Virus record (IMG/VR): IMGVR_UViG_3300034107_000364
Origin: a virus
Taxonomy: Duplodnaviria; Heunggongvirae; Uroviricota; Caudoviricetes
DNA: 64,000 bases
Reading direction: 5' to 3' (one strand)
The notes under the pieces were generated by a model. It worked only from the letters and a program-made list of their open reading frames with translations, was not told the DNA's origin and made no database searches. Shown here in pieces: positions 30,475 to 60,430 of this stretch (position 1 is the first letter of the stretch; the number at the start of each line of letters is the position of its first letter). Made by a program: the position numbers and the translations under genes.

Positions 30475-30481
30475 CTAAAGA

Positions 30482-43554: not shown

Positions 43555-43845
43555 ATGAGCACTACAGAAAAATTTCTAATGCTATTTTCAGACTTCGAGA
43601 TGATCGTTGTTGAAAAAACGAATGAGGTAAAAATAGACAAGAGTAATACTCAACATTCGATTGGCGCTAATCAAACAAAGAGTGAACTAAAGAAAGTACT
43701 TAAGCGATTGACTGAAGAATACAGCAGAGCTAAAAAGTCATTTAAACAAAATAAATTAAGTCGTCAAGAATTATTTGATTTCGAATGGAGATTATTTGAA
43801 ATACAAGAAGAGATTAAAAGATTAGATGACGAAACTGCGGCATAA
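43555..43845 (+). CDS. hypothetical coiled-coil protein (96 aa)
   Basis: ORF. Confidence 0.45.
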   Translation: MSTTEKFLMLFSDFEMIVVEKTNEVKIDKSNTQHSIGANQTKSELKKVLKRLTEEYSRAKKSFKQNKLSRQELFDFEWRLFEIQEEIKRLDDETAA

Positions 43846-44333
43846 TGAAACACCTAAAAAAATATGATCAATTTATCAACGAGAAATATCTAGACACTAG
43901 ATATTCAGCTGGTCTTGCGATTGTGTTTGATGGTAAAATTTTGTTAGGTCAATCTAGAGGTAGAAAAGAAGGAACTGGTTATGGTATATCTAAAGGTGGC
44001 ATCGAAGAAGGTGAATCACATTTAGATGCTGCTATCAGAGAAACTTATGAAGAGTTCGGTATTAAAGTTCCTAAATCTTTAATAAGTAAAATTGAACGTA
44101 CATTTGTTTTAACTTCTAGAAAGTATAAGTATAATAAAGTTATTTATTATTTTATAGTTGAAATAGATGACCTGTCTAAAATAGGACTTAAAGATCTAGT
44201 GGTACCTAAAGGGCAATTACAGCGTGAAGAAATTGATAATGCCAAATTTATGGACAAAATAGAAGCTTCACAAGTTATAATGTTAAGTCAACAAGTGGTT
44301 CTACAAAATTTAAGTGCAATGGGACTAATATGA
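43845..44333 (+). CDS. Nudix hydrolase with CTS-like N-terminal leader
   Basis: Nudix box GGIEEGESHLDAAIRETYEEFGI; N-terminus MKHLKKYDQFINE. Confidence 0.65.
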   Translation: MKHLKKYDQFINEKYLDTRYSAGLAIVFDGKILLGQSRGRKEGTGYGISKGGIEEGESHLDAAIRETYEEFGIKVPKSLISKIERTFVLTSRKYKYNKVIYYFIVEIDDLSKIGLKDLVVPKGQLQREEIDNAKFMDKIEASQVIMLSQQVVLQNLSAMGLI

Positions 44334-44653
44334 AAGAGTTAATAGGACAATACATATCAGAATGGGGTTGGGTGACAGCAGTAGCTATAATTTCATTTAC
44401 ATTCAAAGACATGATTGCTAATCTTGTTATTGGTATGCAGTTTTTATGGGGCAATGATTTTAATGTAGATGATATAGTTTATATTAAAGGCGCAAAGAAA
44501 GCTAGAATAGTTAGACAAAATATATACAAAACAACTTTTTATGTTTTTGGACATGAAAGAAAATTCGTAGTACCTAATAATAGACTATGGACTCTAGAAA
44601 TAGAAAAAGAAATACCAAAAGATGAAACACCTGAAAACTTTCCAATTATTTGA
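44330..44653 (+). CDS. hypothetical protein (107 aa)
   Basis: ORF; 3' end overlaps next gene by 30 nt in another frame. Confidence 0.4.
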   Translation: MKELIGQYISEWGWVTAVAIISFTFKDMIANLVIGMQFLWGNDFNVDDIVYIKGAKKARIVRQNIYKTTFYVFGHERKFVVPNNRLWTLEIEKEIPKDETPENFPII

Positions 44654-44885
44654 GGATGCTCAAAAAGTAGCTGACCTAAATCTTAAAGTTAGAGAATTAG
44701 ATTCTAAAAGAAACGAGATTAAAACTAAAGCTGCTGAAACTGCAAAAGCAATGAGAAACGAAGAGGATCCATTAAAATCTGAAATGTTAGCATTAACTGC
44801 ACAGAAACTTTCCATGCAAGCAGAAATATCAAAAATTGATATAAAACTTACTGCATTGAAAATAAAAATAGAATCTAATAAATAA
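44622..44885 (+). CDS. hypothetical coiled-coil protein with CTS-like leader
   Basis: MKHLKTFQLFEDAQK. Confidence 0.45.
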   Translation: MKHLKTFQLFEDAQKVADLNLKVRELDSKRNEIKTKAAETAKAMRNEEDPLKSEMLALTAQKLSMQAEISKIDIKLTALKIKIESNK

Positions 44886-44915
44886 ACATTATTAGATTTT
44901 TAAGTATAAGCTAAG

Positions 44916-45515
44916 ATGAAACACGTTAAAAATTACACAGAATACCTAAATGAGGTAAACAGAGCTGGAAAACCATATCATGGTTCCAAGATTCTTGTGT
45001 TTGATCTTGACGATACTTTAGTAATTTCATCAGCAAAAATAAAGGTTTGCAATAAGAAAACAGGAGAATGTTATTCACTGACTCCAGAAGAATTTAATAG
45101 TTATGAAAAACATGCAGATCATGAATTAAACTTTGATGAATTTAAATCATTAGAGATTATGAAAGCTGGTCAAATGATTGAACATTACTTAGACATATTT
45201 AAAGAAGCTTATAAATCACGCATCGCAGTTGGAATTGTTACAGCAAGAGATGATAGAGAAATGATTTATAGATGGTTAAGAGAACATGTTGGATTTAGAA
45301 TCGACAAAGATCTTATTTTTGCAGTGAATGATTCAGTACATAAATTCAAAGGTAGTATATCGGATCGTAAAAAACAAGCGTTTAGAGAATTGATCGATAT
45401 GGGTTACAGTGACCTACAATTTTACGATGATGATGAGGCTAATTTAGTATTAGTAAAATCATTAGAACAAGAACATGAAGGAATACAAATATCAACAATT
45501 AGAGCATACAAATAA
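44916..45515 (+). CDS. HAD-superfamily phosphatase with CTS-like leader
   Basis: leader MKHVKNYTEYLNE; HAD motif I FDLDDTL, motif II VTAR, motif IV YDDDEAN. Confidence 0.6.
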   Translation: MKHVKNYTEYLNEVNRAGKPYHGSKILVFDLDDTLVISSAKIKVCNKKTGECYSLTPEEFNSYEKHADHELNFDEFKSLEIMKAGQMIEHYLDIFKEAYKSRIAVGIVTARDDREMIYRWLREHVGFRIDKDLIFAVNDSVHKFKGSISDRKKQAFRELIDMGYSDLQFYDDDEANLVLVKSLEQEHEGIQISTIRAYK

Positions 45516-45517
45516 AT

Positions 45518-47059
45518 ATGAGTACATTTAAAGACATTAGAAATAATTTTCAAATAGCAATGGATAAAGCTATTCATGAATCAAAACAACCAACTAAAAA
45601 AGCAATTGAAGAGTTTTGGCTAGAAGGTTTTAAAAAGTTTATGAATTCTAAAGATTTTGCTGGTGTTTCCAGTAGAATAAGTGGAACAGGTGAAGTGTTA
45701 AGAGCAAATTTCGGCGCAAATGACGGAACGGCAGAAACTAAAATTATAGAATTTCTTAAAGAAGTAGGTGGTATTGATCCATCGTCTTATAGTATAGAAT
45801 TTAAACAACAAGGAATTGTTTCTAGTGATTTCGCAGGATATACAATAATTTTCAATACTAAAGTATCAGATGCTTTAGGTAAAGATTATAAAAAAGGAGA
45901 CTTTATAACAATTACCAATAGATTTAAAGTTAATAAAAAAGGAGAGCAGGGTGTTGTTGGTAGAAAAGATCTTACACCTGATAATCTAGGTATAACAAAA
46001 AACATATATCAATCAGCTGAAAGTTTATTTGCAGTTGTCTCTCCGGCTATATCTAATAGCAGTTTACCAGAAAACTATAAAAAATGTTTTATTACAGTAA
46101 CTGAATCTATTATGAATAATTCATCAAATAAAAATAAATTTAAAGATTTTGATGCTTATTTAGCAGCTGGAGTACATGACATATCTTATAGTGTTGACAA
46201 TAATATATTTGAGGGTATTGATCCTATTTCAATCCAACATTTCCAAAATGATTACGGAGAAATATTAGGAGGCTTTATGTTTTTTAATATACTTCAATCA
46301 TATGGTGTGGGATTATCTTATCCAAAATCATCTAATGAAAAATTAGTAGATTTTTATTTTAGCGGATATTCTATTTCTTCAAAAGGCGGAAAAGGAGGAA
46401 CACCGAGTGGAGATACTATAATTCAAAAAATATACCAAGCCAAACAAGATTCTTTAATACAAGCAGAAACTGCACTAGAATCAGATTTCCTTACTAATGT
46501 TGTAGAGCAGTGGGTTAATCCTCCTAAATTAGCTAGAAGTGGTACTTATGACAATATAATGAATTTGTGTAATGTTAATATAAAAGATCATTCAAATTCA
46601 GGATATTGGCTTCTTTGTTCAGAATCTAAATTAGATCCCTCGATGCTAACTCAAGATGCTGTTGTTAGTTTTCTAGATATATTATACGATTCTAATGTAG
46701 ATGAATTTAGCAATTTCATATCTAAATTATGGGATTTGAGTAAAATGCAATGGAATAAAGCTAAATTAAATGAGATGATAAAGTCATATCCTACAATGGG
46801 TAAAAACAAAATTGGAATAGTATTTTATGCTTTAATGGTTGAAATAGCTACATTATTAACTAATACGTATTCTAATGAATTATCTAAATTTGGAAGAATG
46901 GTAACAGATGTAAAACAATTATATTTAGATGTTTCTGTAAACAAAGGAACTCTTATATTTAAAACAATACCATTTAAATCAGCTAACTTTCAATTTGAAC
47001 AAAAAGGAAGTATGCCTAACCCATTTAATGCTAATATGGGAATAAAAGTAATTAAGTAA
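45518..47059 (+). CDS. hypothetical protein (513 aa)
   Basis: ORF. Confidence 0.5.
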   Translation: MSTFKDIRNNFQIAMDKAIHESKQPTKKAIEEFWLEGFKKFMNSKDFAGVSSRISGTGEVLRANFGANDGTAETKIIEFLKEVGGIDPSSYSIEFKQQGIVSSDFAGYTIIFNTKVSDALGKDYKKGDFITITNRFKVNKKGEQGVVGRKDLTPDNLGITKNIYQSAESLFAVVSPAISNSSLPENYKKCFITVTESIMNNSSNKNKFKDFDAYLAAGVHDISYSVDNNIFEGIDPISIQHFQNDYGEILGGFMFFNILQSYGVGLSYPKSSNEKLVDFYFSGYSISSKGGKGGTPSGDTIIQKIYQAKQDSLIQAETALESDFLTNVVEQWVNPPKLARSGTYDNIMNLCNVNIKDHSNSGYWLLCSESKLDPSMLTQDAVVSFLDILYDSNVDEFSNFISKLWDLSKMQWNKAKLNEMIKSYPTMGKNKIGIVFYALMVEIATLLTNTYSNELSKFGRMVTDVKQLYLDVSVNKGTLIFKTIPFKSANFQFEQKGSMPNPFNANMGIKVIK

Positions 47060-47261
47060 TTGATGAATCCTCAAGAGTGGCAACATTATGTAGACAAAGG
47101 TGAGGTTCCAATGCATTTTTTCAAATCAATGGTAGAATCTCTTAAGAAAGGTGAAAGGCTAAATGGTCAACATTTAGCGGTTTACCAATCTCATGGACCA
47201 ATCATTGAAATGATGTTACGCAAAAAATAAACTATTTCTACCATTTTCATATAAATTATAA

Positions 47262-48008
47262 ATGGAAAATTACACATATATTTTAGGTCCTTGTAGCATT
47301 GAAAGCGAGGACAACTTCACAGAAGTAGCAAATGCACTATATCCTATAATGCAAGGAAAAGATTGGTATCTTAAAGGTAGCTTTGATAAAGCCAATCGAA
47401 CTTCAATTCATTCTAATCGAGGTCCGGGTTTAGACGAAGGTATCGAGATTATGCGAAATGTCAAAGCTAAATTTCCAGGTCTTAAAATCGTTACAGATAT
47501 TCACACAGCAGATCAAGCATTACCATTATCAGATGTAGTAGATGTGATTCAAATTCCAGCATTCTTATGTAGACAAACAGATCTTCTTATAGAATGTGCA
47601 AAACACTTTAATATTATCAACGTTAAGAAGGGTCAGTGGTTATCTGCTGATGCAATGAAACATGCTGTTACCAAGATTAAAGAAGTAAATCCAACATGTC
47701 AAGTATGGATTACTGAACGTGGTACTCAATTTGGTTTTGATAGGTTAATTGTAGATTTCAGAGGAGTTGATGTAATGAAACAATTTGCAGATAAAGTTAT
47801 CTTTGATTGTACGCACTCAACTCAAATGTCAGGTGATGGTATTACAGGTGGAAGTAGAAAACTTGCAAAGCAATATTCTTTAGCTGCACGTATTTTTGAG
47901 TATGATGGAGTATTTATTGAAACACATCCAGATCCTGATAATGCCATCTCAGATGCAGCTAGTCAAGTAGAATTGGATTGGATGGTAGAAAATCTAAAAA
48001 ACATTTAA
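47262..48008 (+). CDS. kdsA: 3-deoxy-D-manno-octulosonate 8-phosphate synthase-like (KdsA/DAHP synthase family)
   Basis: LGPCSIESE, KGSFDKANRTS, IQIPAFLCRQTDLL, NVKKGQ, FDCTHSTQ conserved blocks. Confidence 0.7.
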   Translation: MENYTYILGPCSIESEDNFTEVANALYPIMQGKDWYLKGSFDKANRTSIHSNRGPGLDEGIEIMRNVKAKFPGLKIVTDIHTADQALPLSDVVDVIQIPAFLCRQTDLLIECAKHFNIINVKKGQWLSADAMKHAVTKIKEVNPTCQVWITERGTQFGFDRLIVDFRGVDVMKQFADKVIFDCTHSTQMSGDGITGGSRKLAKQYSLAARIFEYDGVFIETHPDPDNAISDAASQVELDWMVENLKNI

Positions 48009-48078
48009 ACTATTTTTTAAAAAAGGTGTTTTTTTAAAAAACTAAATGAATTGCCCAGATATATAATCAGAGCGCAAT

Positions 48079-48282
48079 ATGCCTTACCCTTTAAAAATAT
48101 CTAGTTTTACAATGGCAGAATTTATCCCAGAAGTTGTTCCTGCTTCTGAGCATGATTCAAAGACCGTAGAAGTTACAAGTGTTAAAAACGATTACATGTT
48201 CCAAATCACATTGGACGATCTTTATGACATAGCAGATGATTACGCTAATTGGGTCTATTTCGGAGTCGGTGGTCCAGCTTAA
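48079..48282 (+). CDS. hypothetical protein (67 aa)
   Basis: ORF followed by terminator. Confidence 0.45.
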   Translation: MPYPLKISSFTMAEFIPEVVPASEHDSKTVEVTSVKNDYMFQITLDDLYDIADDYANWVYFGVGGPA

Positions 48283-48291
48283 ACAGAACAA

Positions 48292-48320
48292 AGAGCAGCT
48301 TTTTTAGCTGCTTTTTTCTT
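48292..48320 (+). terminator. rho-independent terminator
   Basis: AGAGCAGCTtttttAGCTGCTTT + T-run. Confidence 0.65.
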
Positions 48321-48383
48321 TTATGAAACAAAATGAAGATAAATAATATAAATATATAATCTAAAATAATAAAAAACAAAATT

Positions 48384-48815
48384 ATGAGTACAACAATCAT
48401 CGCAGTAGCATTAGTCTCTTTAGTAGTTATTATAACTATTTTTAAAGCAATTGCAAAAAAAGAGAAAGAAGATTCTAAAAGAGGTTCAGTACTTGATCCT
48501 ATTGTAGAACCTACAGTAAAAAAACCTACTAAAATTAAAGCTGCTAAACCAGCAAAAGAAGTAGCACCAATTGCTAAAGAAGCAAAAGCTAAAAAACTTA
48601 CACCTAAAAAACCAAAAACAGGTAAAAATGCTACCAGTGGTTCAGGCTCTGGATCAGGATCAGGCTCTGGAAGTGGATCAAATGTAGGTGGAACAGGATA
48701 TGCTTATGGTACAGGTTCTGGCCGTTCAAGTGGTAAAGGTTCAGGTTCTGGAAGTGGAAGTGGTTCAGGTTCTGGAAGCGGAAGCGGTAAAGGTTCCGGT
48801 GCTGGTAAAAAATAA
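48384..48815 (+). CDS. membrane-anchored Lys-rich protein with (GS)n low-complexity tail
   Basis: N-terminal TM IIAVALVSLVVIITIF, Lys/Pro-rich linker, two (SG)6-9 runs. Confidence 0.5.
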   Translation: MSTTIIAVALVSLVVIITIFKAIAKKEKEDSKRGSVLDPIVEPTVKKPTKIKAAKPAKEVAPIAKEAKAKKLTPKKPKTGKNATSGSGSGSGSGSGSGSNVGGTGYAYGTGSGRSSGKGSGSGSGSGSGSGSGSGKGSGAGKK

Positions 48816-48847
48816 GAATATATAAAGTAAAATATACAAACAAACAT

Positions 48848-51800
48848 ATGTCATCATTTATTAATTTCAATAATAAAGAAGTTACGACTGGAGCAAGCTA
48901 TACTGCTGAAGCGGTTAAAATAGCTTTATTAAAGTCAGAGACTAAAAGCTCTATAAAAGCTGAAACGCTTACAAAAAATATCAAAGAACCTTTGTCTTTA
49001 AATGAGGCTTTAGTATTTTTTACTGATAAATTATCAGCCATGAAATCATTATCTCTTGCAAATGCAGAGATCAATGAAGGAAAGATCAAGCAATTCGAAA
49101 CGGATTACAAGGATATGGAAACCAGTATCAAGAGAGGTATTGGTTGGATTGATCCAGAATATGTAGCAGATACTTGGGAAAATTCATCAGACTCTATTGA
49201 TTTTGAATTAGTTAAAACCGAGCTTTATAAGAGATTAATTGCTGCAGGTTTATTAGCATTTTCAAATCCAGAAGATGGTGAAACAAAAGGTGTACCTGTT
49301 AGAAGTTTAAAAGACTTAAGTATTAAAGAGTCTTTAGAAGCAAATAAGGTTAACGAAACTTTATTCTTTGCATTCTTTAATAACAAGAAAATCGAAGTAG
49401 AAGGTAAAGATCTTTGGGATGCTAAACAAAAAGCAATCATCGAATTAAAGGTACCTAAATCTAAAGTTGGTTTATTAGCTGTAGTAAGTGCTGAATCACA
49501 AAAGAATCAAGATTTTAAATTTGAATCTTTTGTAGGTGAAAGTGAAGTCATCACTGTTGAGGTTGATATGGCATGGGATGATTTAGACAAAGAAGAAGAC
49601 AAAGCAGCTAAAGCAGCTTTCAAGAAATATAAGATCAAAGTTGAACCAATGAGTCTGGGTCGCGGTAGTCAGGACATTCGTCAAGAAGGAACTTTCGAAG
49701 TAACTGGTAAGAAAAAAGACATTCTTGCATATCTTAAAAGTGATTTCTATGAAATGGATCAAGAAACTATTGAAGAATACTATCCTGAACTTTTAGAATC
49801 TTCTAAAAAACCAGCAGGTCTTACATTAGACGATACAAAAAAGGTTGCAGAATTATATGCTAGCGCTCTTTCTAAAGCAGATGGTGTTAAAGCTACTGTT
49901 AATAAAAAATCACTAGAAGAAGATTCATTTGATTTAGATGTAGATGGCGAAGAATATGCAGGTGGATCTTACAATATTTATCATAACGGAGAAGTAGTTA
50001 ATCATGCAGTTCCAGGATCACCGGTATATGGTTATTTTGATGATAAGCTTGATACTATTGTAAAAAACATAAAAAATCCAAAATTACACGAGAGTGCAAT
50101 GTCAGATATTGATATTATGGCTCAAGAAGCAAAAGATTTTAAATCATTTGTAAAAGAGTTTAAAAAAGAACATCATGACTTATCTAGTGCTGGTGAACCA
50201 GGTCAATTTGAAGCATGGTTACAAACAATTTACGATACTGCTAAAGAAAACATGGACGAGTCAGTAGTTAACGAAGGTCAATTCTCATGGATGGCTCAAG
50301 ATACTGGAAATCAAATTGGTTCTGAAAAACAAAATACCATTACTATTACAATGTTTGATGACAAAGGTAATAAATGGGAAGAAAAGAAATATGACGGTTA
50401 CGGTGAATTCGGTGGTAAAGATTACTACGAATTATTAGCTCAAATGAATGGAATTGAAAATCCTAATAGACAAGATGGTATTGATATTGCATTTGATAAA
50501 AAGAAAGTTAGTGGAAAAGTTCTTTTCCCAGCTTTAGTTGAAGATCCAAAACGTTTCAACTTCAAAAAGCACGATTTTACACAAGAAGCAGAACATGATC
50601 CAAATCAATCATGGTACCAAGAAGAAGAGTACGATGATGATTATGAAGAGTATGATGAATCTAAAGTTACTGAAGCAGCAAGAGTACCTTCTAATGTTTT
50701 AGATTTTGCTAAAAGAAAAGGAAGTTATGCAACTTCATTGGTTAAGAAAGCTGCTACATGGGCTGAAAAAGCTGGTAAGTATATTAGCGGTGGTACTGCA
50801 ATTGGTAAAGATTATATGACTATAATTTTAGACATGAAACATCAAGGTTCTGAAATTTATATTAATCTAAATGACGAAACAATTGAATTATTTGGCGAAG
50901 AAGTTACTGATGCTAAATCATTCCAAAAAGTATTAGATGCAAATATGTCAGAATCTAAAGTTAATGAATCTGCGGCTGATCTAATAAAATATGTTGAAAC
51001 CGCATCTGAAAAAACTTTCAAAGGTGGTGGTAATGGTCAAAATCTATTAGATAATGCAATGGAACTTGCTTCACACATTGGAGACTATGAAATGGGCAGA
51101 CCTACTAGAGGATATGAAGAAGATGGTTTTTATGGTCCAGCTACAATAACTTTATTTAAAAGATTAGTTGATCAAATGTCAGCAGATGATATTAAAAATA
51201 ATCAAGCTGATAAATATGAATCTAAAGTTACTGAATCACATTTTAAAGTTGGCGACAAAGTAAAAATGTCACATGGTGGAACTGGTGTAATTGTTTCTTT
51301 AGATAAAGAAGATGGCGCAGAGGATGAAAAATACTATAATGTAGAATTACCAAACGGAGAAATGCACAAGCACGCACCTAATGAATTGACTAAAGAATCA
51401 GTAGTTATTGAAGGTATATCTGTTACAGACGAGAGAGTTTATGGTAAAAAAGGTATTATCATTATGATTGATGATAATGGTAAACAAGTATCTGCGATAT
51501 TCAAAGATAAAAAGAATGCTGACAAATACAATAGAAATAAGGCAGAAGATATTAAAGCTCTTTTAGATTTAGCTAAAGATACTAAATATCCAAATGCTAT
51601 TGATGAATCTGTTGTTAATGAAGGTAGATCAATCAATAAAATCCAAAAAGAATGGAGTGAAACTACTACTAAAATGCAACAAAAAGCAGGTGAGTGGAAA
51701 GTAGCTGAAGGCGATAGAAAATCTGAATTGTTGGATGAAATGAAAGCATTGACAGCTAAGAAAAGAGAATTAGAAGCAGAATTAGACGCAGCTGTTGCTG

Positions 51801-52426
51801 GTAAAGATAAAGATCTTGAATTAGTAGTATCTGAAGGAAATGCATTCGGTGCCGCAAGAGCTAAAGCAATTGCAGATGGTGCTAAAGAATTTGAATTTGA
51901 AGGTGAAACTTATAAAGTTGAAGATGTTGGAGCAGACGATAAAGAAAATGCAAAAGAATTCGTAGAAGAAGGAAATGCATTCTTGGCTGCAAGAGCTAAA
52001 GCAATCGAAGAAGATGCTGAAGAATTTGAATTTAATGGTAAAACCTTTCCAGTTATTGAAGAAGGAAATGCATTCGGTGCAGCAAGAGCAAAAGCTATTG
52101 CAGATGGTGCAAAAGAATTTGAATTTGAAGGCGAAACTTATAAAGTAGAAGACGCTGGACCAGACGATAAAAAAAATGCTAAGGAATTCGTAGAAGAATC
52201 TAAATTAACGTTAGATGCTTTAGTAGAAATGTTTGAGGTAAAGGTTAACGAAGATTTAAGATCTGATGTTAAGAAATTTATCAAAGACAATGCAAATGAA
52301 TTAAACACTTTAGCTGATAAAGACGAATGGGACTTAATGTATACAAAACTATACAATGAGTTCAATGTTGAAGCAAATTCAACAAAAGGAAAAGACTTAT
52401 TAAAGACATTCCAGTTCGTATTCTAA
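48848..52426 (+). CDS. large acidic protein (1192 aa) with 3x ~33-aa internal repeats and recurrent ES(V/K)V(N/T)E motifs
   Basis: repeats EGNAFGAARAKAIADGAKEFEFEGETYKVED x3 near C-terminus; motifs DESVVNEG (x2), ESKVTE (x2), ESKVNE. Confidence 0.55.
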   Translation: MSSFINFNNKEVTTGASYTAEAVKIALLKSETKSSIKAETLTKNIKEPLSLNEALVFFTDKLSAMKSLSLANAEINEGKIKQFETDYKDMETSIKRGIGWIDPEYVADTWENSSDSIDFELVKTELYKRLIAAGLLAFSNPEDGETKGVPVRSLKDLSIKESLEANKVNETLFFAFFNNKKIEVEGKDLWDAKQKAIIELKVPKSKVGLLAVVSAESQKNQDFKFESFVGESEVITVEVDMAWDDLDKEEDKAAKAAFKKYKIKVEPMSLGRGSQDIRQEGTFEVTGKKKDILAYLKSDFYEMDQETIEEYYPELLESSKKPAGLTLDDTKKVAELYASALSKADGVKATVNKKSLEEDSFDLDVDGEEYAGGSYNIYHNGEVVNHAVPGSPVYGYFDDKLDTIVKNIKNPKLHESAMSDIDIMAQEAKDFKSFVKEFKKEHHDLSSAGEPGQFEAWLQTIYDTAKENMDESVVNEGQFSWMAQDTGNQIGSEKQNTITITMFDDKGNKWEEKKYDGYGEFGGKDYYELLAQMNGIENPNRQDGIDIAFDKKKVSGKVLFPALVEDPKRFNFKKHDFTQEAEHDPNQSWYQEEEYDDDYEEYDESKVTEAARVPSNVLDFAKRKGSYATSLVKKAATWAEKAGKYISGGTAIGKDYMTIILDMKHQGSEIYINLNDETIELFGEEVTDAKSFQKVLDANMSESKVNESAADLIKYVETASEKTFKGGGNGQNLLDNAMELASHIGDYEMGRPTRGYEEDGFYGPATITLFKRLVDQMSADDIKNNQADKYESKVTESHFKVGDKVKMSHGGTGVIVSLDKEDGAEDEKYYNVELPNGEMHKHAPNELTKESVVIEGISVTDERVYGKKGIIIMIDDNGKQVSAIFKDKKNADKYNRNKAEDIKALLDLAKDTKYPNAIDESVVNEGRSINKIQKEWSETTTKMQQKAGEWKVAEGDRKSELLDEMKALTAKKRELEAELDAAVAGKDKDLELVVSEGNAFGAARAKAIADGAKEFEFEGETYKVEDVGADDKENAKEFVEEGNAFLAARAKAIEEDAEEFEFNGKTFPVIEEGNAFGAARAKAIADGAKEFEFEGETYKVEDAGPDDKKNAKEFVEESKLTLDALVEMFEVKVNEDLRSDVKKFIKDNANELNTLADKDEWDLMYTKLYNEFNVEANSTKGKDLLKTFQFVF
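51820..52200 (+). repeat. in-frame tandem coding repeat (3 copies, ~100 nt unit)
   Basis: gaaggaaatgcattcggtgc(c/a)gcaagagc(t/a)aaagc... repeated. Confidence 0.6.
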
Positions 52427-52427
52427 A

Positions 52428-52622: not shown

Positions 52623-52625
52623 ACT

Positions 52626-53213
52626 ATGTTATACACTTATTGTAAAGACTCGTTAACTTTTAAACGAATTAATCCCCGAAAAATGCTTAAAGCCATAGGA
52701 GCATCTTTGCTCTTCTTAGGCATTACTTATTATACCACATACAATGTGGCCACACAGAAAGCTTCCGCTAAATCCATGACTAACATGTCATATGAACAAA
52801 AAGTCTTAATAGTTAATGAAATATCCAAGAATGAGTTTTCAAAAGAAGCTGTGGTAGAAGAACTTAAGCGACTTAATGTAAAATACCCACATATTGTATT
52901 AGCTCAAGCTCTTATAGAAAGCGGCCATTTTCAAAGTAATATCTTTAGATCTAATAATAATTTGTTTGGTATGAAAGAAGCTAAACAAAGAACTACTACT
53001 GCACGTGGAACTAATTTAGGTCATGCTTATTACGATAATTGGAAAGAATCAATCTTAGATTATGCAATATTTCAATCAGCTTATCTTAGAGACCTTAATA
53101 CAGAAGAACAATATTTAAGTTATTTGGGTGCAAATTATGCAGAGGCTAGTAATTATGAATTAGCTGTAACAAATATGATAAAAAACGAAAAACTAAAAGA
53201 GCTTTTTAATTAA
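52626..53213 (+). CDS. membrane-anchored mannosyl-glycoprotein endo-beta-N-acetylglucosaminidase-domain protein (FlgJ/LytD-like glucosaminidase)
   Basis: TM LKAIGASLLFLGITYY; LAQALIESGHFQSNIFRSNNNLFGMK matches Glucosaminidase domain core. Confidence 0.6.
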   Translation: MLYTYCKDSLTFKRINPRKMLKAIGASLLFLGITYYTTYNVATQKASAKSMTNMSYEQKVLIVNEISKNEFSKEAVVEELKRLNVKYPHIVLAQALIESGHFQSNIFRSNNNLFGMKEAKQRTTTARGTNLGHAYYDNWKESILDYAIFQSAYLRDLNTEEQYLSYLGANYAEASNYELAVTNMIKNEKLKELFN

Positions 53214-53246
53214 GATATATAATATAATTAAAAAAATATTTATAGT

Positions 53247-53516
53247 ATGAAATACGCAAAACCTTTCGAAGCTTTCGCAAATAAAATTGAATTACCTAAG
53301 ACGATTACTGAAAAGAAATCTGATGGTACTATTTCAGATGACGAAGAAGCAAGAGAAGAAGATTTAATGGCTAACGTTGAAGTTGCTATCGATGACTTAA
53401 TCACTTTAATTAAAAAAGAAGCTAACGAAATAGGTGGTTCTTTTAGATCTCCTGGAATTGAATCTAGAGTTGGTAAACTTTTAAAAGCAAAATTAGCAAA
53501 AGCAAAATTAATTTAA
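53247..53516 (+). CDS. hypothetical protein with weak CTS-like N-terminus (89 aa)
   Basis: MKYAKPFEAFANKIE. Confidence 0.45.
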   Translation: MKYAKPFEAFANKIELPKTITEKKSDGTISDDEEAREEDLMANVEVAIDDLITLIKKEANEIGGSFRSPGIESRVGKLLKAKLAKAKLI

Positions 53517-53521
53517 TAATT

Positions 53522-53851
53522 ATGAAACACATTAAACTATTTGAACAATTTATCAACGAAGGTAAATTCATTGACTTTAAATTTAATTCTAACAAGGATC
53601 ATAATCCTTGTTGTGATATTTTAGAAGGTCACTTAGACGGTGATACATTTATCACATATGGTATTTATGTTAAAGCTGATGGTGATAAAAAAGTTGGAGA
53701 TGAATTCATGGAACAATACACTGGTTCAAACTATAAAGTAGGATCAAGCAAAAGATCAAATTCAAGAATTTATGAACCTTCTAAAATTCCTGCTAAATAC
53801 AAAGCAGCTTGGGAAGAATTAAAAGCTAAATACGAAAAAGAATATAAATAA
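53522..53851 (+). CDS. hypothetical protein with CTS-like leader (109 aa)
   Basis: MKHIKLFEQFINE|GK. Confidence 0.55.
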   Translation: MKHIKLFEQFINEGKFIDFKFNSNKDHNPCCDILEGHLDGDTFITYGIYVKADGDKKVGDEFMEQYTGSNYKVGSSKRSNSRIYEPSKIPAKYKAAWEELKAKYEKEYK

Positions 53852-53857
53852 GATATT

Positions 53858-54196
53858 ATGAAACACACTAAATTATTCGAAGAATTCTTAAATGAAGCTA
53901 AATCACCTAAACCAGAGATTTTAGTAAAATTATTTAAAGAACTTGCTAAAGCCAAAAATGTAGAAAAACTTATTTGGGGACATGACGATCAAGAAGAATT
54001 TCCACATATTGTACACTTTGCAAATGGATTAGAATCTGAAGCTCCAAGACACGAAGGTGACATGGAAGAATTTTCATTCTATTTAAATGACGATGGTCAA
54101 ACTATCTTAGGTATTTATGACTTAAGTGGATATGATGAAGAGTTAAAAACTCCAAAAGATGCAGTAGTTTGGTGCAGAGCTAACGAAAAACAATAA
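53858..54196 (+). CDS. hypothetical protein with CTS-like leader (112 aa)
   Basis: MKHTKLFEEFLNE|AK. Confidence 0.55.
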   Translation: MKHTKLFEEFLNEAKSPKPEILVKLFKELAKAKNVEKLIWGHDDQEEFPHIVHFANGLESEAPRHEGDMEEFSFYLNDDGQTILGIYDLSGYDEELKTPKDAVVWCRANEKQ

Positions 54197-54209
54197 AACA
54201 ATACACACG

Positions 54210-54401
54210 GTGGCACTCTTTAAATTGGTTAAATTTTTTGAATCCGAACTAGAAAACTTAGAAGCAAATAAATCTAAATGTTTTATAGTTAGAAAATGGC
54301 ATAATTATAGAATTATGATTATCAAAGATAGGATCAAAGAATTAAGAGACGAAATTAATTTAAGAAAGAGACAACCTCGTGAAAAACAAGATTACAAATG
54401 A
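54210..54401 (+). CDS. hypothetical small protein (63 aa, GTG start)
   Basis: ORF with non-ATG start; weak. Confidence 0.3.
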   Translation: MALFKLVKFFESELENLEANKSKCFIVRKWHNYRIMIIKDRIKELRDEINLRKRQPREKQDYK

Positions 54402-54736
54402 AACACACTAAATTATTTGAAGAATTCGTAAACGAAGGTAATGAAATGCCAATCGGTTTAGAAGCTTTTACTAAAGACGAAAAATCAGAAGGTAAACCTG
54501 CAGAAATTTATTTAGCAACCTTTAGTGGTAAAACTTTCAAAGCACAATCTACTGATAAAACATGGGACGACGGAGTTCCTGTAACAAAGAACTTTACAAG
54601 AGGTGGTTACAAAGACGTAACTATTAAAGGACAACACTATATCATTGACACACCAACATTCTGGTATTTCAGAGTAGGTCGAGTTTGGTATGCTGTTAAA
54701 CGTGCTGATTATGGTACACCACCATTTGAATATTAA
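54398..54736 (+). CDS. hypothetical protein with CTS-like leader (112 aa)
   Basis: MKHTKLFEEFVNE|GN. Confidence 0.55.
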   Translation: MKHTKLFEEFVNEGNEMPIGLEAFTKDEKSEGKPAEIYLATFSGKTFKAQSTDKTWDDGVPVTKNFTRGGYKDVTIKGQHYIIDTPTFWYFRVGRVWYAVKRADYGTPPFEY

Positions 54737-54750
54737 ATAAAATACAAATC

Positions 54751-55716
54751 ATGAAAATAGTTAAATTATTCGACGATTATCTAAATATTGCTGCTTCTCA
54801 GCAGAATATGTCAAGAGAACAGTATGCTGCATTTTATATGTCAGAAAAATCAATTACTGAAGAAGGTGATACTCTTACTGAATTAAATAATATGACTTTA
54901 GGTCAATTAGAAAGAATTGAAGATTATGCTGAAATGATCGGAGATCGCATGAAAGGCGGTCAAAAATTAGAATCTTGGATGTTTTCTCAAATCACTGGAG
55001 CGGTGGACAATCTAAACGCAGTTCATGATGCAATGGATGGTGTTGATGGTATTAAAGAAAAGAAAATCACAGTTGATTGGGAAGATGATGAAAATGCATT
55101 TATATTCTCAGATGATGGTATGGTTAAAGTTGATTATGATGGAGATTTTCAATACAGAGGTAAATGGTTTTCAACAGCAGAACACACTGGACCAGAAGAT
55201 TTACTTAAAGATTTAAATAAAGCATTCAAAGGCGATAAATTCGTTTATATTAGTGAATCTAAAAATTCTGATGCATTAGCAAAAGGAATTGATTCAGCAA
55301 TTATTAAAATTGATGACTCTTTGTCATACACTGATTTTGCATTAGCAGTTGCTAAGGTATTGATCGATGAATACGGTACACATAATTTTGGACCATTCAT
55401 GTCAGTATTACACAAAGAATTAGGTTTAAAAGAAAGCGTAGTTAATGAGAAGAAAGATGACTATCCAGTTTATCACAATCTCTATTCCTCAGCTATTAAT
55501 GCAGTTGAAATATATGCTAATTCTCAAGGATATACATTAGATCCTAAAGAATACGGTGATGCTTATATAGATGCATTCTTTAAACCAAATGATGGTAAAA
55601 CCAAAAAAGATACCTTAACACTTTTTAAAAACGATAAGGAACAAAAGAAATCTTTACATGTTCAAATTTATAATAGAGGAAACGATAAATTTGAATTGAA
55701 TATGTATATTAACTAA
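54751..55716 (+). CDS. hypothetical protein with CTS-like leader (321 aa)
   Basis: MKIVKLFDDYLNIA; internal ESVVNE motif. Confidence 0.55.
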   Translation: MKIVKLFDDYLNIAASQQNMSREQYAAFYMSEKSITEEGDTLTELNNMTLGQLERIEDYAEMIGDRMKGGQKLESWMFSQITGAVDNLNAVHDAMDGVDGIKEKKITVDWEDDENAFIFSDDGMVKVDYDGDFQYRGKWFSTAEHTGPEDLLKDLNKAFKGDKFVYISESKNSDALAKGIDSAIIKIDDSLSYTDFALAVAKVLIDEYGTHNFGPFMSVLHKELGLKESVVNEKKDDYPVYHNLYSSAINAVEIYANSQGYTLDPKEYGDAYIDAFFKPNDGKTKKDTLTLFKNDKEQKKSLHVQIYNRGNDKFELNMYIN

Positions 55717-55733
55717 TATGGAAGCAGACAGTC

Positions 55734-55973
55734 GTGAGTATAACGAAAAAACTAAAAAGCCGTCTATCAACATGGAGCATGATGGTAGCCCTATTTTTCA
55801 ATCCGCTTGGGTTCGACGTAATTCAGTACTGGTTGATCCAGACGACTGGAAGTCTTTGGCGCGCCAATTTCGTTATGTATTTTATTGCGGCGTCGTTCTT
55901 TGGGCTATCCATATTATTTCGCTGGCAATTAAAGCGTAAAGAGAATGAAACACATGATAGTTTAGATGTATAA
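55734..55973 (+). CDS. small membrane protein (2 TM) in GC-rich island
   Basis: MMVALFFNPLGFDVIQYWLI and FVMYFIAASFFGLSILF helices; preferred over overlapping 55718-55939 ORF, but frame choice uncertain. Confidence 0.35.
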   Translation: MSITKKLKSRLSTWSMMVALFFNPLGFDVIQYWLIQTTGSLWRANFVMYFIAASFFGLSILFRWQLKRKENETHDSLDV

Positions 55974-55986
55974 CTAATAAACGTTT

Positions 55987-56790
55987 ATGTTATTAATATC
56001 GAACAAAGGTAATATTACAGGACCTAACGTATTATTAGAAAATACACCAGATTATATAGATTTCGCAATTCAACAAGGATACAATGTCAAAATAGATTTT
56101 TGGTATCAAGACAATAAATTCTTTTTAGGTGCAAATGGACCAAAAACCCAAATAGATTGGGATTGGCTTACAAATATAAAACGTTTAGAATATCTATGGA
56201 TTAATTGCATGGATACTCAAACGTTTTCTTTTTTATTAGAGAATGCTCCATCTCTTAATTTCTTCTATAACAAAAGTGATAATATTACAATAACTTCTAA
56301 GGGTATTCCTTGGTCTAATATCACAAATCAATACACTTCTAATACTATTTCATGTAATGACACGAACATCGATAAGGTTGTGGGTGTGTGTTCTGATTGG
56401 GTTTCTAAATGGTCTAAACAGATAGCCATTTGTTTTTATGGAAACGCTGGTCTGCCTAGTAAGCGTATCATTAAGAATCATAAGTTAAATTTAATTAAGC
56501 CTTTAGAAGAGCTGGGATTTCATTTGGAGTACTATGGTTCCAAGATAATGAATTACAAAGAGACTGATCTTAAATACAACGAGATATATAACTTCAGAGG
56601 ATTAATATCCCATTTAAAAGATTCTGATAAAGATCAAGAAGAATTTGAATTAATACAACTCAAATCAATGTATGACATGATGGGAGATAATGTATATGAA
56701 ACCATATTCTTTATAAAATGGGATCAAGAATTAAAAGAAGAAGAAATAAAGAATCATATAAAAACATTTAAAACAAATGAAGAAAGTTAA
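55987..56790 (+). CDS. hypothetical protein (267 aa)
   Basis: ORF. Confidence 0.5.
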   Translation: MLLISNKGNITGPNVLLENTPDYIDFAIQQGYNVKIDFWYQDNKFFLGANGPKTQIDWDWLTNIKRLEYLWINCMDTQTFSFLLENAPSLNFFYNKSDNITITSKGIPWSNITNQYTSNTISCNDTNIDKVVGVCSDWVSKWSKQIAICFYGNAGLPSKRIIKNHKLNLIKPLEELGFHLEYYGSKIMNYKETDLKYNEIYNFRGLISHLKDSDKDQEEFELIQLKSMYDMMGDNVYETIFFIKWDQELKEEEIKNHIKTFKTNEES

Positions 56791-59212
56791 ATTATTTGAA
56801 GAATTCATAAGCGAAGTTTCAAAGCAAATGATTTCTGGAACAAGCGGTAGAACTATCACCACTTTAGATAATCGTAAATACGAATTAAAGAAGGATGTCA
56901 AAGATGCTAAGATTGGTAATTATATTAATGTAGTTTTACCAAAGGGTACTATTATCACTAATTTACCAGGTGGTGTTTTTGCAAATCATAAAGATCTTAA
57001 AGACAAATATTGTACAGGATATAAATCTGAAAGATGGGATGAAAAATTCGGAGTGGGAATTAGAACAATGCCAGATACATTAGAAGCTATTGAAGATAAT
57101 TCTAAAGTATTGGAATCAATTAGCCTTGAAGAAACTTTAAATGAATTACATTTAAGTTCTGCTGGTGTTAAAGATTTTTTAAGAGCTATTTATAATAGCA
57201 ATACTAATATAATACAGAAGTTAAACTTTAAAAATTTTAGAGGTTTAACAGATTATATCAAAGGAAGTGATATAGAAGAATTTGATGAATTACGAGATGA
57301 AGCAAAGGCAGCTGGATTAATATTGTTAGAATCAACCCTTAATGAAGCTAAAAAACAAAAATTTGTTTTATATACAAATCCTGGAAATTCAACCAGTGCG
57401 GGTTATATTGCAATTGGAGCAGCAGATGTAAGAGAAGTTCTAAGTGACGCAAAAAACTATTCTGATAGTTGTAAAATATTATATCAAGGAACGGGTACAC
57501 AAGATGATCTTGTAAAAGCTAAAAACATGTTTAGTGGTTATAGATTCGGTGATGAATCAATCGATGAAGCAGTTGAGTTAGTACATGTTTATGATACTAA
57601 AGGTGAATTACAAGGAACTGGTGAGTTAGTAAAAACTAGAGCTAATAAATCTCTAATTAGATGGGATGGTTCTAGTGAAGAATGGATCGATTCGAAATTG
57701 GTGAAATTAGTTGAAGGAATGATTAGTCCTAAAATGGCAAATGGTTTTAAAATTGGAAACAAAATTAAAACTCAAAAAGGAACTTACACAATAACTGGAT
57801 TTGGTTCAAAAACTGGAGCAACTAGAGATTTTGAAGCTGAAAATGAAAATGGAGATAAATTCAATTTAAGAGTTTCATTAAGAGGTGCTACGGGTATTCA
57901 AGTTGCAGCTGGTAAAAGTTTAAACTTTCCAGAGCAAGAAGAAATGTTAGAATCTACAATTAATGAAGATGCTGCAACCACATTTTTAATACTAATGCAA
58001 TCTGCCATGGTTATGGGACAATTAGCATTATTAGGTAATAAAATAAGTGCAGGTGGTGGTACTACTCCAATTGAAGATTTAAAAAATTGGTGGCAAAAAA
58101 GAAAATCTGATAAAGCTGTAAAATCAATCATTGATAAAATTAAAGATGACAAAGATATTGTTGAATTTATGAAGCTTACGCCTTCTCAACAACGTGGTAA
58201 ATTTAGATCATTAGTTGCAACTAAATTAAATGACGAAGAATTAAATTATTTGAATAAGATTAATAGAAATCATTTTCAAACTGAATCTTTAGATGAAAAC
58301 TTTCCAGGTCCTGGCGAAACAGTAGATGCTAAAGATCTTGATTACGATATGTTAGATTATTTTAGCAGAACTAATAAAGTATTATCAATCGATACAAAGT
58401 CCAAAAAAGGAATTAAAGGTTCTGTTGGTAAAATGTATAATGATTTAGTTTTTAACGGAGATAGTATTGCCAAAAAAGACATCGTACGTGTAAAGATCTT
58501 AGAAGGTACTTATAATAACGATAGAGAAATTGCAATCTACGACGGTGAAGATGGATTAACTTACATTGAAAAACGTGGTAAAGGATACTATGGTTACAAT
58601 GATGAGTTTGATTTTGAAGCAGAAGATAAAGCTGAATTAGAAAAGAAACTAAAATCATGGAAATATAAATTAATGTCAGGTTCTATTGACGAGGCATTTG
58701 TAGGACCATTTTTCTTTAGTAATTCAACATCTGATGAAGATCTAAAGAAAATGTATGATGACGCATTAAGTGGATATGCTAATTGGTTAAAAGGATTTGA
58801 ATATCCAAAAGCAGATTATAAGAAAGCATATCAAGAAATTGAAAAACTTCTTAAGAAAAGAGGAATTAAGGTTGATGAGTCTATTGTTAACGAGCATTCT
58901 TTACAGGAATCTAAGTACTTGAATGAAGCTAAGATTTTATCAAGAGTAGAAATGAAAAACGTAATGGTTACTAAATATGGTCTTAGTTTCGTAAAAAATT
59001 CGGAAGAGTTTGACGGTGAAGAAGGTGGTATTTGGTTAGGTGGTAACGACGGTTTATTAATGCCAAATGCGAAAGATGAAATGTTTAACTATTACCATGG
59101 AGGATCTAAATTTCCACAAGGTATTCACAAAGATCTTGCTAAATTTTTAGATAAGTGTGGATGGTATGGTCAATTTGCAGATCCAGGAACAGTAATGCTT
59201 TGGCCAAGATAA
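56777..59212 (+). CDS. large protein (811 aa) with CTS-like leader and internal (L/I/V)xE motifs
   Basis: MKKVKLFEEFISE|VS; internal DESIVNEH and SKYLNE|AK. Confidence 0.55.
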   Translation: MKKVKLFEEFISEVSKQMISGTSGRTITTLDNRKYELKKDVKDAKIGNYINVVLPKGTIITNLPGGVFANHKDLKDKYCTGYKSERWDEKFGVGIRTMPDTLEAIEDNSKVLESISLEETLNELHLSSAGVKDFLRAIYNSNTNIIQKLNFKNFRGLTDYIKGSDIEEFDELRDEAKAAGLILLESTLNEAKKQKFVLYTNPGNSTSAGYIAIGAADVREVLSDAKNYSDSCKILYQGTGTQDDLVKAKNMFSGYRFGDESIDEAVELVHVYDTKGELQGTGELVKTRANKSLIRWDGSSEEWIDSKLVKLVEGMISPKMANGFKIGNKIKTQKGTYTITGFGSKTGATRDFEAENENGDKFNLRVSLRGATGIQVAAGKSLNFPEQEEMLESTINEDAATTFLILMQSAMVMGQLALLGNKISAGGGTTPIEDLKNWWQKRKSDKAVKSIIDKIKDDKDIVEFMKLTPSQQRGKFRSLVATKLNDEELNYLNKINRNHFQTESLDENFPGPGETVDAKDLDYDMLDYFSRTNKVLSIDTKSKKGIKGSVGKMYNDLVFNGDSIAKKDIVRVKILEGTYNNDREIAIYDGEDGLTYIEKRGKGYYGYNDEFDFEAEDKAELEKKLKSWKYKLMSGSIDEAFVGPFFFSNSTSDEDLKKMYDDALSGYANWLKGFEYPKADYKKAYQEIEKLLKKRGIKVDESIVNEHSLQESKYLNEAKILSRVEMKNVMVTKYGLSFVKNSEEFDGEEGGIWLGGNDGLLMPNAKDEMFNYYHGGSKFPQGIHKDLAKFLDKCGWYGQFADPGTVMLWPR

Positions 59213-59232
59213 TAACAAAAGTACATTAGATT

Positions 59233-59610
59233 ATGAGACACGTTAAAACATATGAAGACTACAACAATTTAAATGAATATAATGATTTAAAGGGATCAGA
59301 AGTATGGAGACATATTAAAGATATTACACCTGAAAAAGAAAATATTCCAAATGGATTTAAAAAAGATATTGTTGGTAGAACATTTGCAAACGTAGATGAT
59401 TTTGATATGAAGTCTTTATTAAAAACCGATCCTGATTTTAAAGAATATTATGATTCAGGAGAAGAACGTTACACTGATGACGATGTAAGTCCAAGAGATC
59501 TTTCATTAGAAATAGTTGTCGTTGATGGTGTTTTATTAGATGGATATTCTAGAGTTGCTAATCTTTTAAGAAATGGTGAAAAAACAACTTCGGCTTTTAT
59601 AGCAAAATAG
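59233..59610 (+). CDS. hypothetical protein with CTS-like leader (125 aa)
   Basis: MRHVKTYEDYNNLNE|YN. Confidence 0.5.
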   Translation: MRHVKTYEDYNNLNEYNDLKGSEVWRHIKDITPEKENIPNGFKKDIVGRTFANVDDFDMKSLLKTDPDFKEYYDSGEERYTDDDVSPRDLSLEIVVVDGVLLDGYSRVANLLRNGEKTTSAFIAK

Positions 59611-59634
59611 TTAGATATATTAAATAATATTTCA

Positions 59635-59668
59635 AAGGAGGTACTTTTAAAGTTACCTCCTTTTTTAT
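59635..59668 (+). terminator. rho-independent terminator
   Basis: AAGGAGGTACttttaaaGTTACCTCCTT + T6. Confidence 0.7.
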
Positions 59669-59701
59669 TTTGATATATAGTATATAAATAAATTTATAAT
59701 C

Positions 59702-60430
59702 ATGAAATATATCAAATTATTTGAAGAATTTGTAAGCGAGGGCGTATATGATCCAGGAATCCTTAAGGCATTCTTTATGGCAGGTGGACCAGGAAGTGGT
59801 AAATCTTATGTTGCAACAGAACTTTTTGATTTTCCAAAAGGAAAAGTAGGTTCAGTGTCTTATGCAACTGGACTTAAATTAGTTAATAACGATAATGCAT
59901 TCGAAAAAGGCTTAAAAGATGCTGGATATAATGCAGGAGATCTTGCAGATTTAGCAAAAGATCCTGAAAAATGGGCTGAAGTTATGGTTATTAGAGATAA
60001 AGCTAAAAACTTGACCAGAGGACTTCAAAATAACTATTTAAATTCTAGATTAGGTCAAGTAATTGATGGAACTGGTAAAGATTTTGATAAGATTAGTAAA
60101 ACTAGAGATATTTATCAAAACTTAGGTTATGATACATATATGGTTTTCGTTAATACATCATTAGAAGTTGCATTAGAGCGAAATCAAATGAGAGAAAGAA
60201 AGTTAGAAGATAAAATGGTTGAAAAAATGTGGAAAGAAGTTCAAAATAACTTAGGTCACTTTCAAAAACTATTTGGATCTGATAAAATGTTAATTGTTGA
60301 TAATTCAGCATATGGTGAAGATCTATTAGATCAAGCCGAAAAGCAAATTAACAGAAACTTGGGTACACCAGTTCAAAATCCATTAGGTAAACGTTGGATT
60401 CAAGAACAACTAGCAGCAAAAAAACAATAA
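59702..60430 (+). CDS. P-loop NTPase (kinase-like) with CTS-like leader
   Basis: MKYIKLFEEFVSE|GV then Walker A GGPGSGKS; adenylate/polynucleotide-kinase-like size (242 aa). Confidence 0.55.
   Translation: MKYIKLFEEFVSEGVYDPGILKAFFMAGGPGSGKSYVATELFDFPKGKVGSVSYATGLKLVNNDNAFEKGLKDAGYNAGDLADLAKDPEKWAEVMVIRDKAKNLTRGLQNNYLNSRLGQVIDGTGKDFDKISKTRDIYQNLGYDTYMVFVNTSLEVALERNQMRERKLEDKMVEKMWKEVQNNLGHFQKLFGSDKMLIVDNSAYGEDLLDQAEKQINRNLGTPVQNPLGKRWIQEQLAAKKQ

Follow-up and report, generated by a model that had tools for sequence, protein, structure and literature searches.

A conserved N-terminal leader, probably a T4-type capsid-targeting propeptide, on unrelated proteins of an uncultured phage

We analysed a 64,000-nucleotide stretch of the uncultured Caudoviricetes virus IMGVR_UViG_3300034107_000364, referred to below as the window. 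Eleven of its predicted proteins begin with nearly the same leader of about 13 residues, M-K-H-[IV]-K-L-F-E-[EQ]-F-[ILV]-N-E, which is probably a T4-type capsid-targeting propeptide. The leader stands in front of dissimilar proteins, enzymes among them. It recurs in uncultured relatives on an open reading frame (ORF) of the head gene module, and inside long proteins it has an equivalent in linkers that resemble prohead protease sites.

The N-terminal pattern M[KR]xxKx[FY]xx[FY] was sought at every possible start codon on both strands of the window. Eleven + strand ORFs match it, with starts at 43845, 44622, 44916, 53247, 53522, 53858, 54398, 54751, 56777, 59233 and 59702 (we name the genes by these positions). 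All are confined to 43845-60430, with zero further ORFs on either strand. Judging from amino-acid composition, chance would produce about 0.009 such N-termini per 102 ORFs; the first-pass annotation, which had reported a shared leader on at least 11 ORFs, is thus borne out. Relaxing the pattern brings in just 8484 (MKIKSYEGFVANK, shorter by one residue) and, within a 1192-residue protein, one in-frame internal site. Both 8484 and 53247 had been listed as weaker members: 53247 does match the pattern, while 8484, which has no Glu site either, stays a weak case.

Residues 7 and 10 are Phe or Tyr in each of the 11 window leaders. Seven of them (43845, 44916, 53522, 53858, 54398, 56777 and 59702) continue with [ILV]-[NS]-E at residues 11-13. 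The earlier statement that every leader ends in such a site at these residues was too strong, as it does not hold for 44622 (L-F-E at 9-11), 53247 (K-I-E at 13-15), 59233 (L-N-E at 13-15) and 54751 (no nearby site). As had been claimed, the bodies behind the leader are dissimilar: compared pairwise, no two tagged proteins of the window resemble each other. The calls of a Nudix hydrolase (43845), a HAD phosphatase (44916) and a P-loop kinase (59702) also agree with Pfam and PHROGs, where the other tagged window proteins have no family match. Sequence searches of the PDB with the kinase and the HAD protein gave zero matches. The window cargo ranges from 87 to 811 residues and its mature pI from 4.6 to 9.5, several proteins being acidic.

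The window is AT-rich (about 30-33% G+C) with nearly all genes on the + strand, and all members of the set are AT-rich 5' ends of + strand genes. Such a shared start could in principle be a translation-initiation or mRNA-stability element, or a duplicated DNA cassette, the peptide itself having no function. The codons speak otherwise: synonymous third positions differ between leaders (TTT/TTC, AAC/AAT, GAA/GAG) while the residues are retained, and the 40 bases 5' of the leader ORFs show no conservation among the tagged window genes. What is conserved is therefore the peptide, and neither a DNA repeat nor a promoter. An identical peptide is also found in contigs spanning 25% to 44% G+C, and in-frame internal copies are kept in fusion proteins, where translation does not start. 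The codon data and these internal copies contradict the generic translation-initiation region that the first-pass annotation had raised as an objection, and we find an explanation at the DNA level scarcely credible. The T4 late-promoter octamer TATAAATA lies at 53843-53850 and 59683-59690, 8-19 bases 5' of the tagged genes 53858 and 59702. With 14 copies found in the window versus 13 expected, it is not enriched, and we dropped it as evidence.

The layout of the leader matches that of T4 residue for residue. T4 ipII and ipIII start MKTYQEFIAE/A, and ipI starts MKTFKEF...ITE/A, with ITE at residue 19 (a slash within a peptide stands for an actual or putative cleavage point). The first ten residues of IPIII are enough for packaging. 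Residues 4 and 7 are the main determinants of targeting, 8 and 10 govern processing, and gp21, the protease, cleaves L-x-E or I-x-E behind the Glu (PMC9026906). When Y4-Q-E-F7-I8-A-E10 of T4 is aligned with F7-E-E-F10-I11-N-E13, the aromatics fall on the T4 targeting positions, and [ILV]11 and E13 on the processing positions. Both systems thus share a short N-terminal M-K-x leader with two aromatics three apart, then [ILV]-x-E, and in both one leader serves unrelated bodies. The likeness extends, in relatives of the window phage, to a protease of the gp21 family and to core proteins encoded between portal and protease. However, the leader is three residues longer here (MKH-IKL-FEEFINE versus MKT-YQEFIAE), and 11 genes are tagged instead of three to four. 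T4 cargo is small and basic, whereas the cargo here includes enzymes and an 811-residue multi-module protein. Further differences are the fusion of the protease to a scaffold, seen in the relatives, and the chaining of cargo domains through internal cleavage-type linkers.

Scanning IMG/VR with back-translated MKHxKLFEEF returned 99 DNA stretches, the window phage itself not among them; many contain clusters of 2-10 tagged ORFs. Pooled with the window, they yield 174 distinct tagged proteins with the consensus M-K-H-[IV]-K-L-F-E-[EQ]-F-[IVL]-N-E. Position 7 is Phe in 157 of the 174 and position 10 in 168 (Phe or Tyr being invariant there through construction of the pattern). [ILVMF]-x-E is present at 11-13 in 116, the others having a later site or none. 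Once the first 15 residues are removed, the proteins fall into 94 body families; as the sample is partial, there are at least 94. A full-text literature search turned up no paper containing the leader motif strings. Ten tagged window proteins, searched as a concatenate, had almost no matches in cultured phages, and at the DNA level the window matched GenBank phages just in tRNAs and in one part of the kinase gene (66-68% identity).

The leader is linked to a T4-type head module. By tblastn, leader-bearing loci match the portal gp20, protease gp21, capsid gp23, sheath gp18, terminase, gp4, gp44, gp46/47 and UvsW of T4 or phage Melnitz. Portal_T4, Peptidase_S77 (the family of T4 gp21) and Gp23 score above the curated Pfam cut-offs in leader-bearing relatives, Peptidase_S77 doing so in loci L011, L030, L203 and L205 and in the genome LR756500.1. 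In these relatives the protease forms a single polypeptide with a long, scaffold-like stretch of repetitive sequence. The order in L011 is portal, an acidic 114-residue ORF starting MKHVKLFEEFLSE, the protease-scaffold fusion and a capsid protein that starts MANLINE/AEV.

A sample independent of the leader was drawn by picking 80 IMG/VR loci on portal similarity alone; 67 of them have both portal and protease genes. In 62 of those 67 the ORF between the two has a leader of this family at its start (41 distinct sequences); in T4 this interval holds the prohead core genes gp67 and gp68. The capsid protein of the portal-selected loci starts MANLINE[SA]E or, in a large minority, MANLINSAE. A portal search found 1991 protein clusters at E <= 1e-100, so the group is common. 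Tenacibaculum phage PTm1 has the same order of portal, ORF, protease-scaffold and capsid genes; we set it aside, the MKHxKLFEEF leader being absent in the 25 kb examined.

These loci bear on the idea that the leader is a docking peptide for the baseplate, the tail fibres or a phage chaperone and not a head-targeting signal. Variable phage receptor-binding proteins frequently carry conserved N-terminal anchors, and in L030 tagged leucine-rich-repeat proteins sit among baseplate-like genes. Nevertheless, we judge docking very unlikely: 62 of 67 loci have the tagged ORF within the portal-protease-capsid module, the layout follows the T4 sequence at each residue, the capsid protein has a LINE site as well, and enzymes are implausible as tail parts. 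As to the L030 proteins themselves, this 246-kb IMG/VR contig encodes five paralogues at 2217-8978, between baseplate-like genes and the protease-scaffold gene. They bear the leader or variants of it (MQPIKLFEQF, MEKYVKLFEDF) and could be head cargo or tail parts.

A different reading keeps the prohead as destination: the tagged proteins would be assembly or core parts, comparable to T4 gp67, gp68 and gp22, that are degraded and expelled instead of being delivered. The most conserved leader protein is indeed the small acidic ORF in the gp67/gp68 position, and several window cargoes are acidic, unlike the DNA-binding internal proteins of T4. The T4 core comprises gp21, gp22, gp67, gp68, Alt and the internal proteins, and its proteins are likewise cut at many sites (PMC9026906). 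However, it is hard to see what Nudix, HAD and kinase folds would do in assembly, scaffolds are conserved whereas the bodies here form 94 unrelated families, and a homologue of the kinase, gp53 of phage Atu_ph07, is still present in mature virions. We consider this reading unlikely for the set, although a scaffold-only role is possible for some members, notably the conserved acidic post-portal ORF.

Sites of the leader type also occur within proteins. ES[ILV][ILV]NE is found four times in the window, twice in 48848 and once each in 54751 and 56777; the looser [EG]S[ILVT]..[ND]E is found nine times in the tagged proteins and 48848. Both patterns are absent from the window's other 14,887 residues, and shuffled sequences give averages of 0.003 and 0.13, respectively. 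A score matrix built on EEFINE had missed these linkers because it requires Phe, and was abandoned for the explicit patterns. The sites fall at homology-block boundaries, and in three independent cases pairwise alignment makes them equivalent to leaders. KESVVNE/KKDDYPVYH of 54751 (KESVVNE being residues 228-234) aligns with the leader of a stand-alone ORF in L037, KLFEQFITE/KKSSYQVYH. The leader of 56777, VKLFEEFISE/VSKQ, aligns with an internal VKYFEQYLNE/VTQH of L037, and the internal KYLNE/AKILSR of 56777 with the leader QFVNE/AKTLDR of L134.

Within 56777, residues 1-119, 259-319 and 713-810 match the post-portal ORFs of L140, L137 and L134, respectively, which ties the window proteins to the head module of the relatives. 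In these three loci the acidic core protein after the portal is enlarged from about 114 to 213-348 residues. The insertions are cargo domains, placed behind the leader and ahead of the conserved acidic core domain, and every junction reads [ILV]-[SN]-E. The 1192-residue protein 48848 has internal sites FKFESFVGE/S, AKDFKSFVKE/F, DESVVNE/G (twice), LVVSE/G and VIEE/G, and its modules recur beside tagged ORFs in L002, L055 and L088. It ends in three near-identical C-terminal modules (EGNAFGAARAKAIADGAKEFEFEGETYKVED), each preceded by V-x-E/G. As internal linkers align with stand-alone leaders, the 811-, 321- and 1192-residue proteins look like cleavable polyproteins, which suggests that the protease may cut them into single domains.

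One cargo family has a homologue in virions. In all eight kinase homologues examined, [LIV]-x-E directly precedes the conserved domain start G-[VLI]-x-D, while the leaders differ. The junctions are FVSE/G in the window, FVNE/G in L061, FIEE/G in L075, FINE/G in L037, MKTFAELQE/G in Melnitz, MIPFILKE/G in HTVC008M, MTTFKEYLLE/G in RsoM2USA and an internal ...EVTE/G in Atu_ph07. In purified virions of Atu_ph07 its homologue, gp53, was detected through 31 unique peptides that cover 45.5% of it; its peak was in gel band 9, shared with proteins of 20.8-22 kDa, against a predicted mass of 87 kDa, and gp204 of the same phage was matched to T4 gp21 in Table S3 (PMC6102473). The gp53 numbering agrees with Tables S1 and S5 of that study, and the kinase piece from VTE/G to LTE/L comprises 206 residues. 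Found in virions far below its predicted size, gp53 appears to be processed, which is indirect but experimental evidence for the tagged kinase family. An Alt-like ADP-ribosyltransferase domain considered in gp53 (YRG...STS residues) was rejected as unsupported by Pfam. The published virion analysis of RsoM2USA, confined to the ten strongest gel bands, does not mention ORF254.

Atu_ph07, a Rak2-like, T4-related jumbo phage, resembles the window further. Its gp53-gp65, listed in the virion proteome (PMC6102473), form a gene cluster with a short N-terminal leader ending in L-x-E (observed on gp53-gp57), and gp53 has the kinase domain of 59702, bounded in gp53 by [LIV]-x-E sites. The leader sequence is nevertheless a different one, and the cluster consists mostly of paralogues of about 30 kDa, not of unrelated bodies. 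The start M[KR]W[EN][QD]L[NT]E on gp53-gp57 (L212, 39484-45663) looks like a lineage-specific capsid-targeting leader, of which we noticed no mention in PMC6102473. In Melnitz (L116, 794-4399) and HTVC008M (L101, 6648-9974), T4-like phages of marine OM43/SAR11, enzyme-like proteins have starts resembling a capsid-targeting sequence, such as MKKFSEIIE/A on a cytidylyltransferase-like protein and MTRYNKTMSEALSE/V. These starts hint that packaged enzymes may be common in aquatic T4-like phages.

Altogether, the T4 layout, the many unrelated bodies, the ORF in the head module, the Peptidase_S77 of the relatives, the [ILV]-x-E sites of capsid and linkers and the virion homologue of the kinase support a capsid-targeting leader. 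Several observations weigh against it. About one third of the tagged proteins, and four of the 11 window leaders, have no Glu at position 13, so that a cut there is not a general feature. The T4 internal proteins are small (8-20 kDa), basic and DNA-associated, whereas the mature window cargo varies in size and charge and, past the leader, has no sequence similarity to them. The 1192-residue protein has linkers, yet no N-terminal leader. No close relative turned up among cultured phages, the best GenBank capsid match (50.6% identical) coming from a metagenome. Finally, the portal, protease and capsid genes of the window phage are absent from the window and from about 10 kb of flank at both ends. 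The prohead protease and scaffold, which the first-pass annotation had placed outside the window, were thus located in leader-bearing relatives but not in the window genome over this range; two candidate portals, P0033 and P0020, both belong to other phages. Assemblies of the window phage in ENA reach 260,917 bp, and public contigs end in a tRNA cluster. The sample names KAVA23-1 and MEHR18-2 may denote freshwater studies.

Table 1. Leader-tagged and associated ORFs of the window (a slash marks the putative cleavage point).
Feature	Position	Strand	Family matches and remarks
Leader-tagged NUDIX hydrolase (MKHLKKYDQFINE/K)	43845..44333	+	Pfam NUDIX 1e-12
Leader-tagged 87-aa coiled-coil-like protein; degenerate leader MKHLKTFQLFE..., no site at 11-13	44622..44885	+	No family match
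Leader-tagged HAD/polynucleotide-kinase-phosphatase-like protein (MKHVKNYTEYLNE/V)	44916..45515	+	PHROG 415 1.6e-12; weak Pfam HAD, below cut-off
1192-aa protein, candidate packaged polyprotein, no N-terminal leader	48848..52426	+	Internal leader-like and linker sites; putative member of the system
Weakly tagged 89-aa protein (MKYAKPFEAFANK)	53247..53516	+	Body homologues in L019, L080
Leader-tagged 109-aa protein (MKHIKLFEQFINE/G)	53522..53851	+	No family match
Leader-tagged acidic 112-aa protein (MKHTKLFEEFLNE/A)	53858..54196	+	No family match
Leader-tagged 112-aa protein (MKHTKLFEEFVNE/G)	54398..54736	+	No family match
Leader-tagged 321-aa protein, three modules	54751..55716	+	C-terminal module also in Melnitz gene 20
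Leader-tagged 811-aa multi-module protein, six internal [EG]S[ILVT]..[ND]E linkers	56777..59212	+	Modules in post-portal ORFs of relatives
Weakly tagged 125-aa protein (MRHVKTYEDYNNLNE/Y)	59233..59610	+	Tagged homologues in L056, L083
Leader-tagged P-loop kinase (MKYIKLFEEFVSE/GVYDP)	59702..60430	+	Pfam Zeta_toxin/AAA_33
Possible outlying member, 343 aa (MKIKSYEGFVANK), no Glu site, weak	8484..9515	+	Leader one residue short; no family match

Shared genes and gene order link the window phage to its T4-type, leader-bearing relatives. The closest of these are uncultured IMG/VR contigs; L061 has its gene order in common with the window across 37-61 kb and encodes a tagged, 61% identical homologue of 44916. 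Contig 3300032462_000022 contains both modules of the 1192-residue protein (L088) and the portal module (L188). LR756500.1, a complete 462-kb metagenomic genome, also has gene order in common with the window and holds portal, protease-scaffold and capsid genes; its capsid protein starts MIKLINE/AE, and its homologue of 44916 is untagged. A sigma-70-family factor of the window (880-1494, Pfam Sigma70_r2/r4), not of the T4 gp55 late type, is 55-60% identical in L085, L007 and L008 and 32% in LR756500.1. In L007 the factor (55% identical) occurs together with a T4-type sheath.

The nearest matches of the L011 capsid protein are LR756500.1 (50.6%), the Prevotella Lak megaphages (about 41%) and Tenacibaculum phage PTm1 (33%). 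Together with a weak SprB domain match in the gene just 3' of the window, these affinities point to Bacteroidota as probable hosts. The leader-bearing clade may correspond to the 'Far-T4' phages, which are known from lakes and oceans; in a limited check of the literature we found no mention of such a leader in 'Far-T4' publications.

Other genes of the window deserve a brief description. It carries 25 tRNA genes (1760-9611 and 30401-30475), 24 of them in one cluster where G+C is raised to about 0.40. Ribose-phosphate pyrophosphokinase (20008-20883, PHROG 5.6e-69) and nicotinamide phosphoribosyltransferase (22330-23814, PHROG 3.3e-192) form an NAD-salvage pair. Directly 5' of the first tagged gene block lies a 201-residue nuclease with a signal-peptide-like N-terminus (42876-43481, PHROG 14168). 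A 143-residue protein at 48384-48815 combines an N-terminal transmembrane segment, a Lys/Pro/Ala-rich middle and a long (GS)n run, and its tandem DNA repeats were confirmed. Two large proteins at 61422-64000 have tandem repeats rich in Pro and Thr, with PTATPVPA units and periods of 24-114 bases in the DNA; G+C locally reaches 0.42 there and the GC skew is reversed. The weak SprB match downstream suggests that these two may act at the cell surface or in host adhesion.

That diverse proteins can have a capsid-targeting sequence alone in common is already established for the T-even phages (PMC3012670, PMC9026906). Their polymorphic internal-protein loci hold diverse, fast-exchanged proteins united by this sequence only and thought to act against host defences (Repoila et al. 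1994, as cited in PMC3012670 and PMC9026906). The window resembles them in its rapidly swapped, diverse cargo. Those loci, however, belong to close T4 relatives infecting enterobacteria, whereas we are dealing with a distant, uncultured, AT-rich clade that probably infects Bacteroidota. Its consensus is another one, and a partial sample of it contains at least 94 body families. In phiKZ, 201phi2-1 and SPN3US, many head-internal proteins have propeptides cut after Glu, some at several points, and a large protein mass is ejected (PMC9026906). These inner-body and ejection proteins, processed by a gp21-related protease (Peptidase_S80), are comparable in that respect. They differ in their motif, S/A/G-x-E, and in the lineage of capsid and portal, and a single short N-terminal consensus tag is not reported for them. 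What appears to be new here is the longer, different consensus, its presence in a distant, very abundant and uncultured clade, and the at least 94 body families, enzymes included. The same seems true of the leader on a conserved core protein and of protease-type linkers that chain domains, movable between stand-alone and fused forms.

The data show the sequence pattern and its distribution, its tie to the head genes and the correspondence of leaders with internal linkers. From T4 and the Atu_ph07 proteome, we infer the following course of binding, cleavage, retention, ejection and action in the host. The tagged proteins would be synthesised during prohead assembly, and their amphipathic leader would bind the scaffolding core through its two aromatics three apart, the core being a protease-scaffold fusion built on the portal. 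The serine protease of the gp21 family (Peptidase_S77) would then cleave [ILV]-x-E behind its Glu, where leaders end as well as in internal ES-[ILV]-x-[ND]-E linkers, and free single cargo domains within the shell. As scaffold fragments exit, DNA would come in. The cargo, which includes the Nudix hydrolase, the HAD phosphatase-like protein and the P-loop kinase besides numerous unknown domains, would finally be ejected with the DNA and act ahead of phage gene expression, perhaps against host defences.

In this abundant, uncultured, T4-related clade the leader and the protease-site linkers may even form a plug-and-play grammar, a view for and against which we see the balance as about equal. Any domain could be packaged in three formats: alone in a tagged ORF, strung with others in a cleavable polyprotein, or lodged behind the leader and ahead of the conserved core domain in the protein encoded between portal and protease. 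The injected proteome would be large, turn over fast and be readable from metagenomes.

As the leader matches the T4 head-loading tag, the proteins that such phages inject are probably predictable from sequence alone. If so, a MKHxKLFEEF[ILV]NE leader or an ES[ILV]x[ND]E linker would mark head-carried, injected proteins of abundant uncultured aquatic phages. The result would be a catalogue of candidate early-acting effectors, with at least 94 families, mostly of unknown function, in a small sample. The leader would also be a potential tool for packaging foreign proteins in Bacteroidota phages. The T4 targeting system would then be much older and more flexible than the T-even cases suggest, with enzymes and multi-domain polyproteins as cargo.

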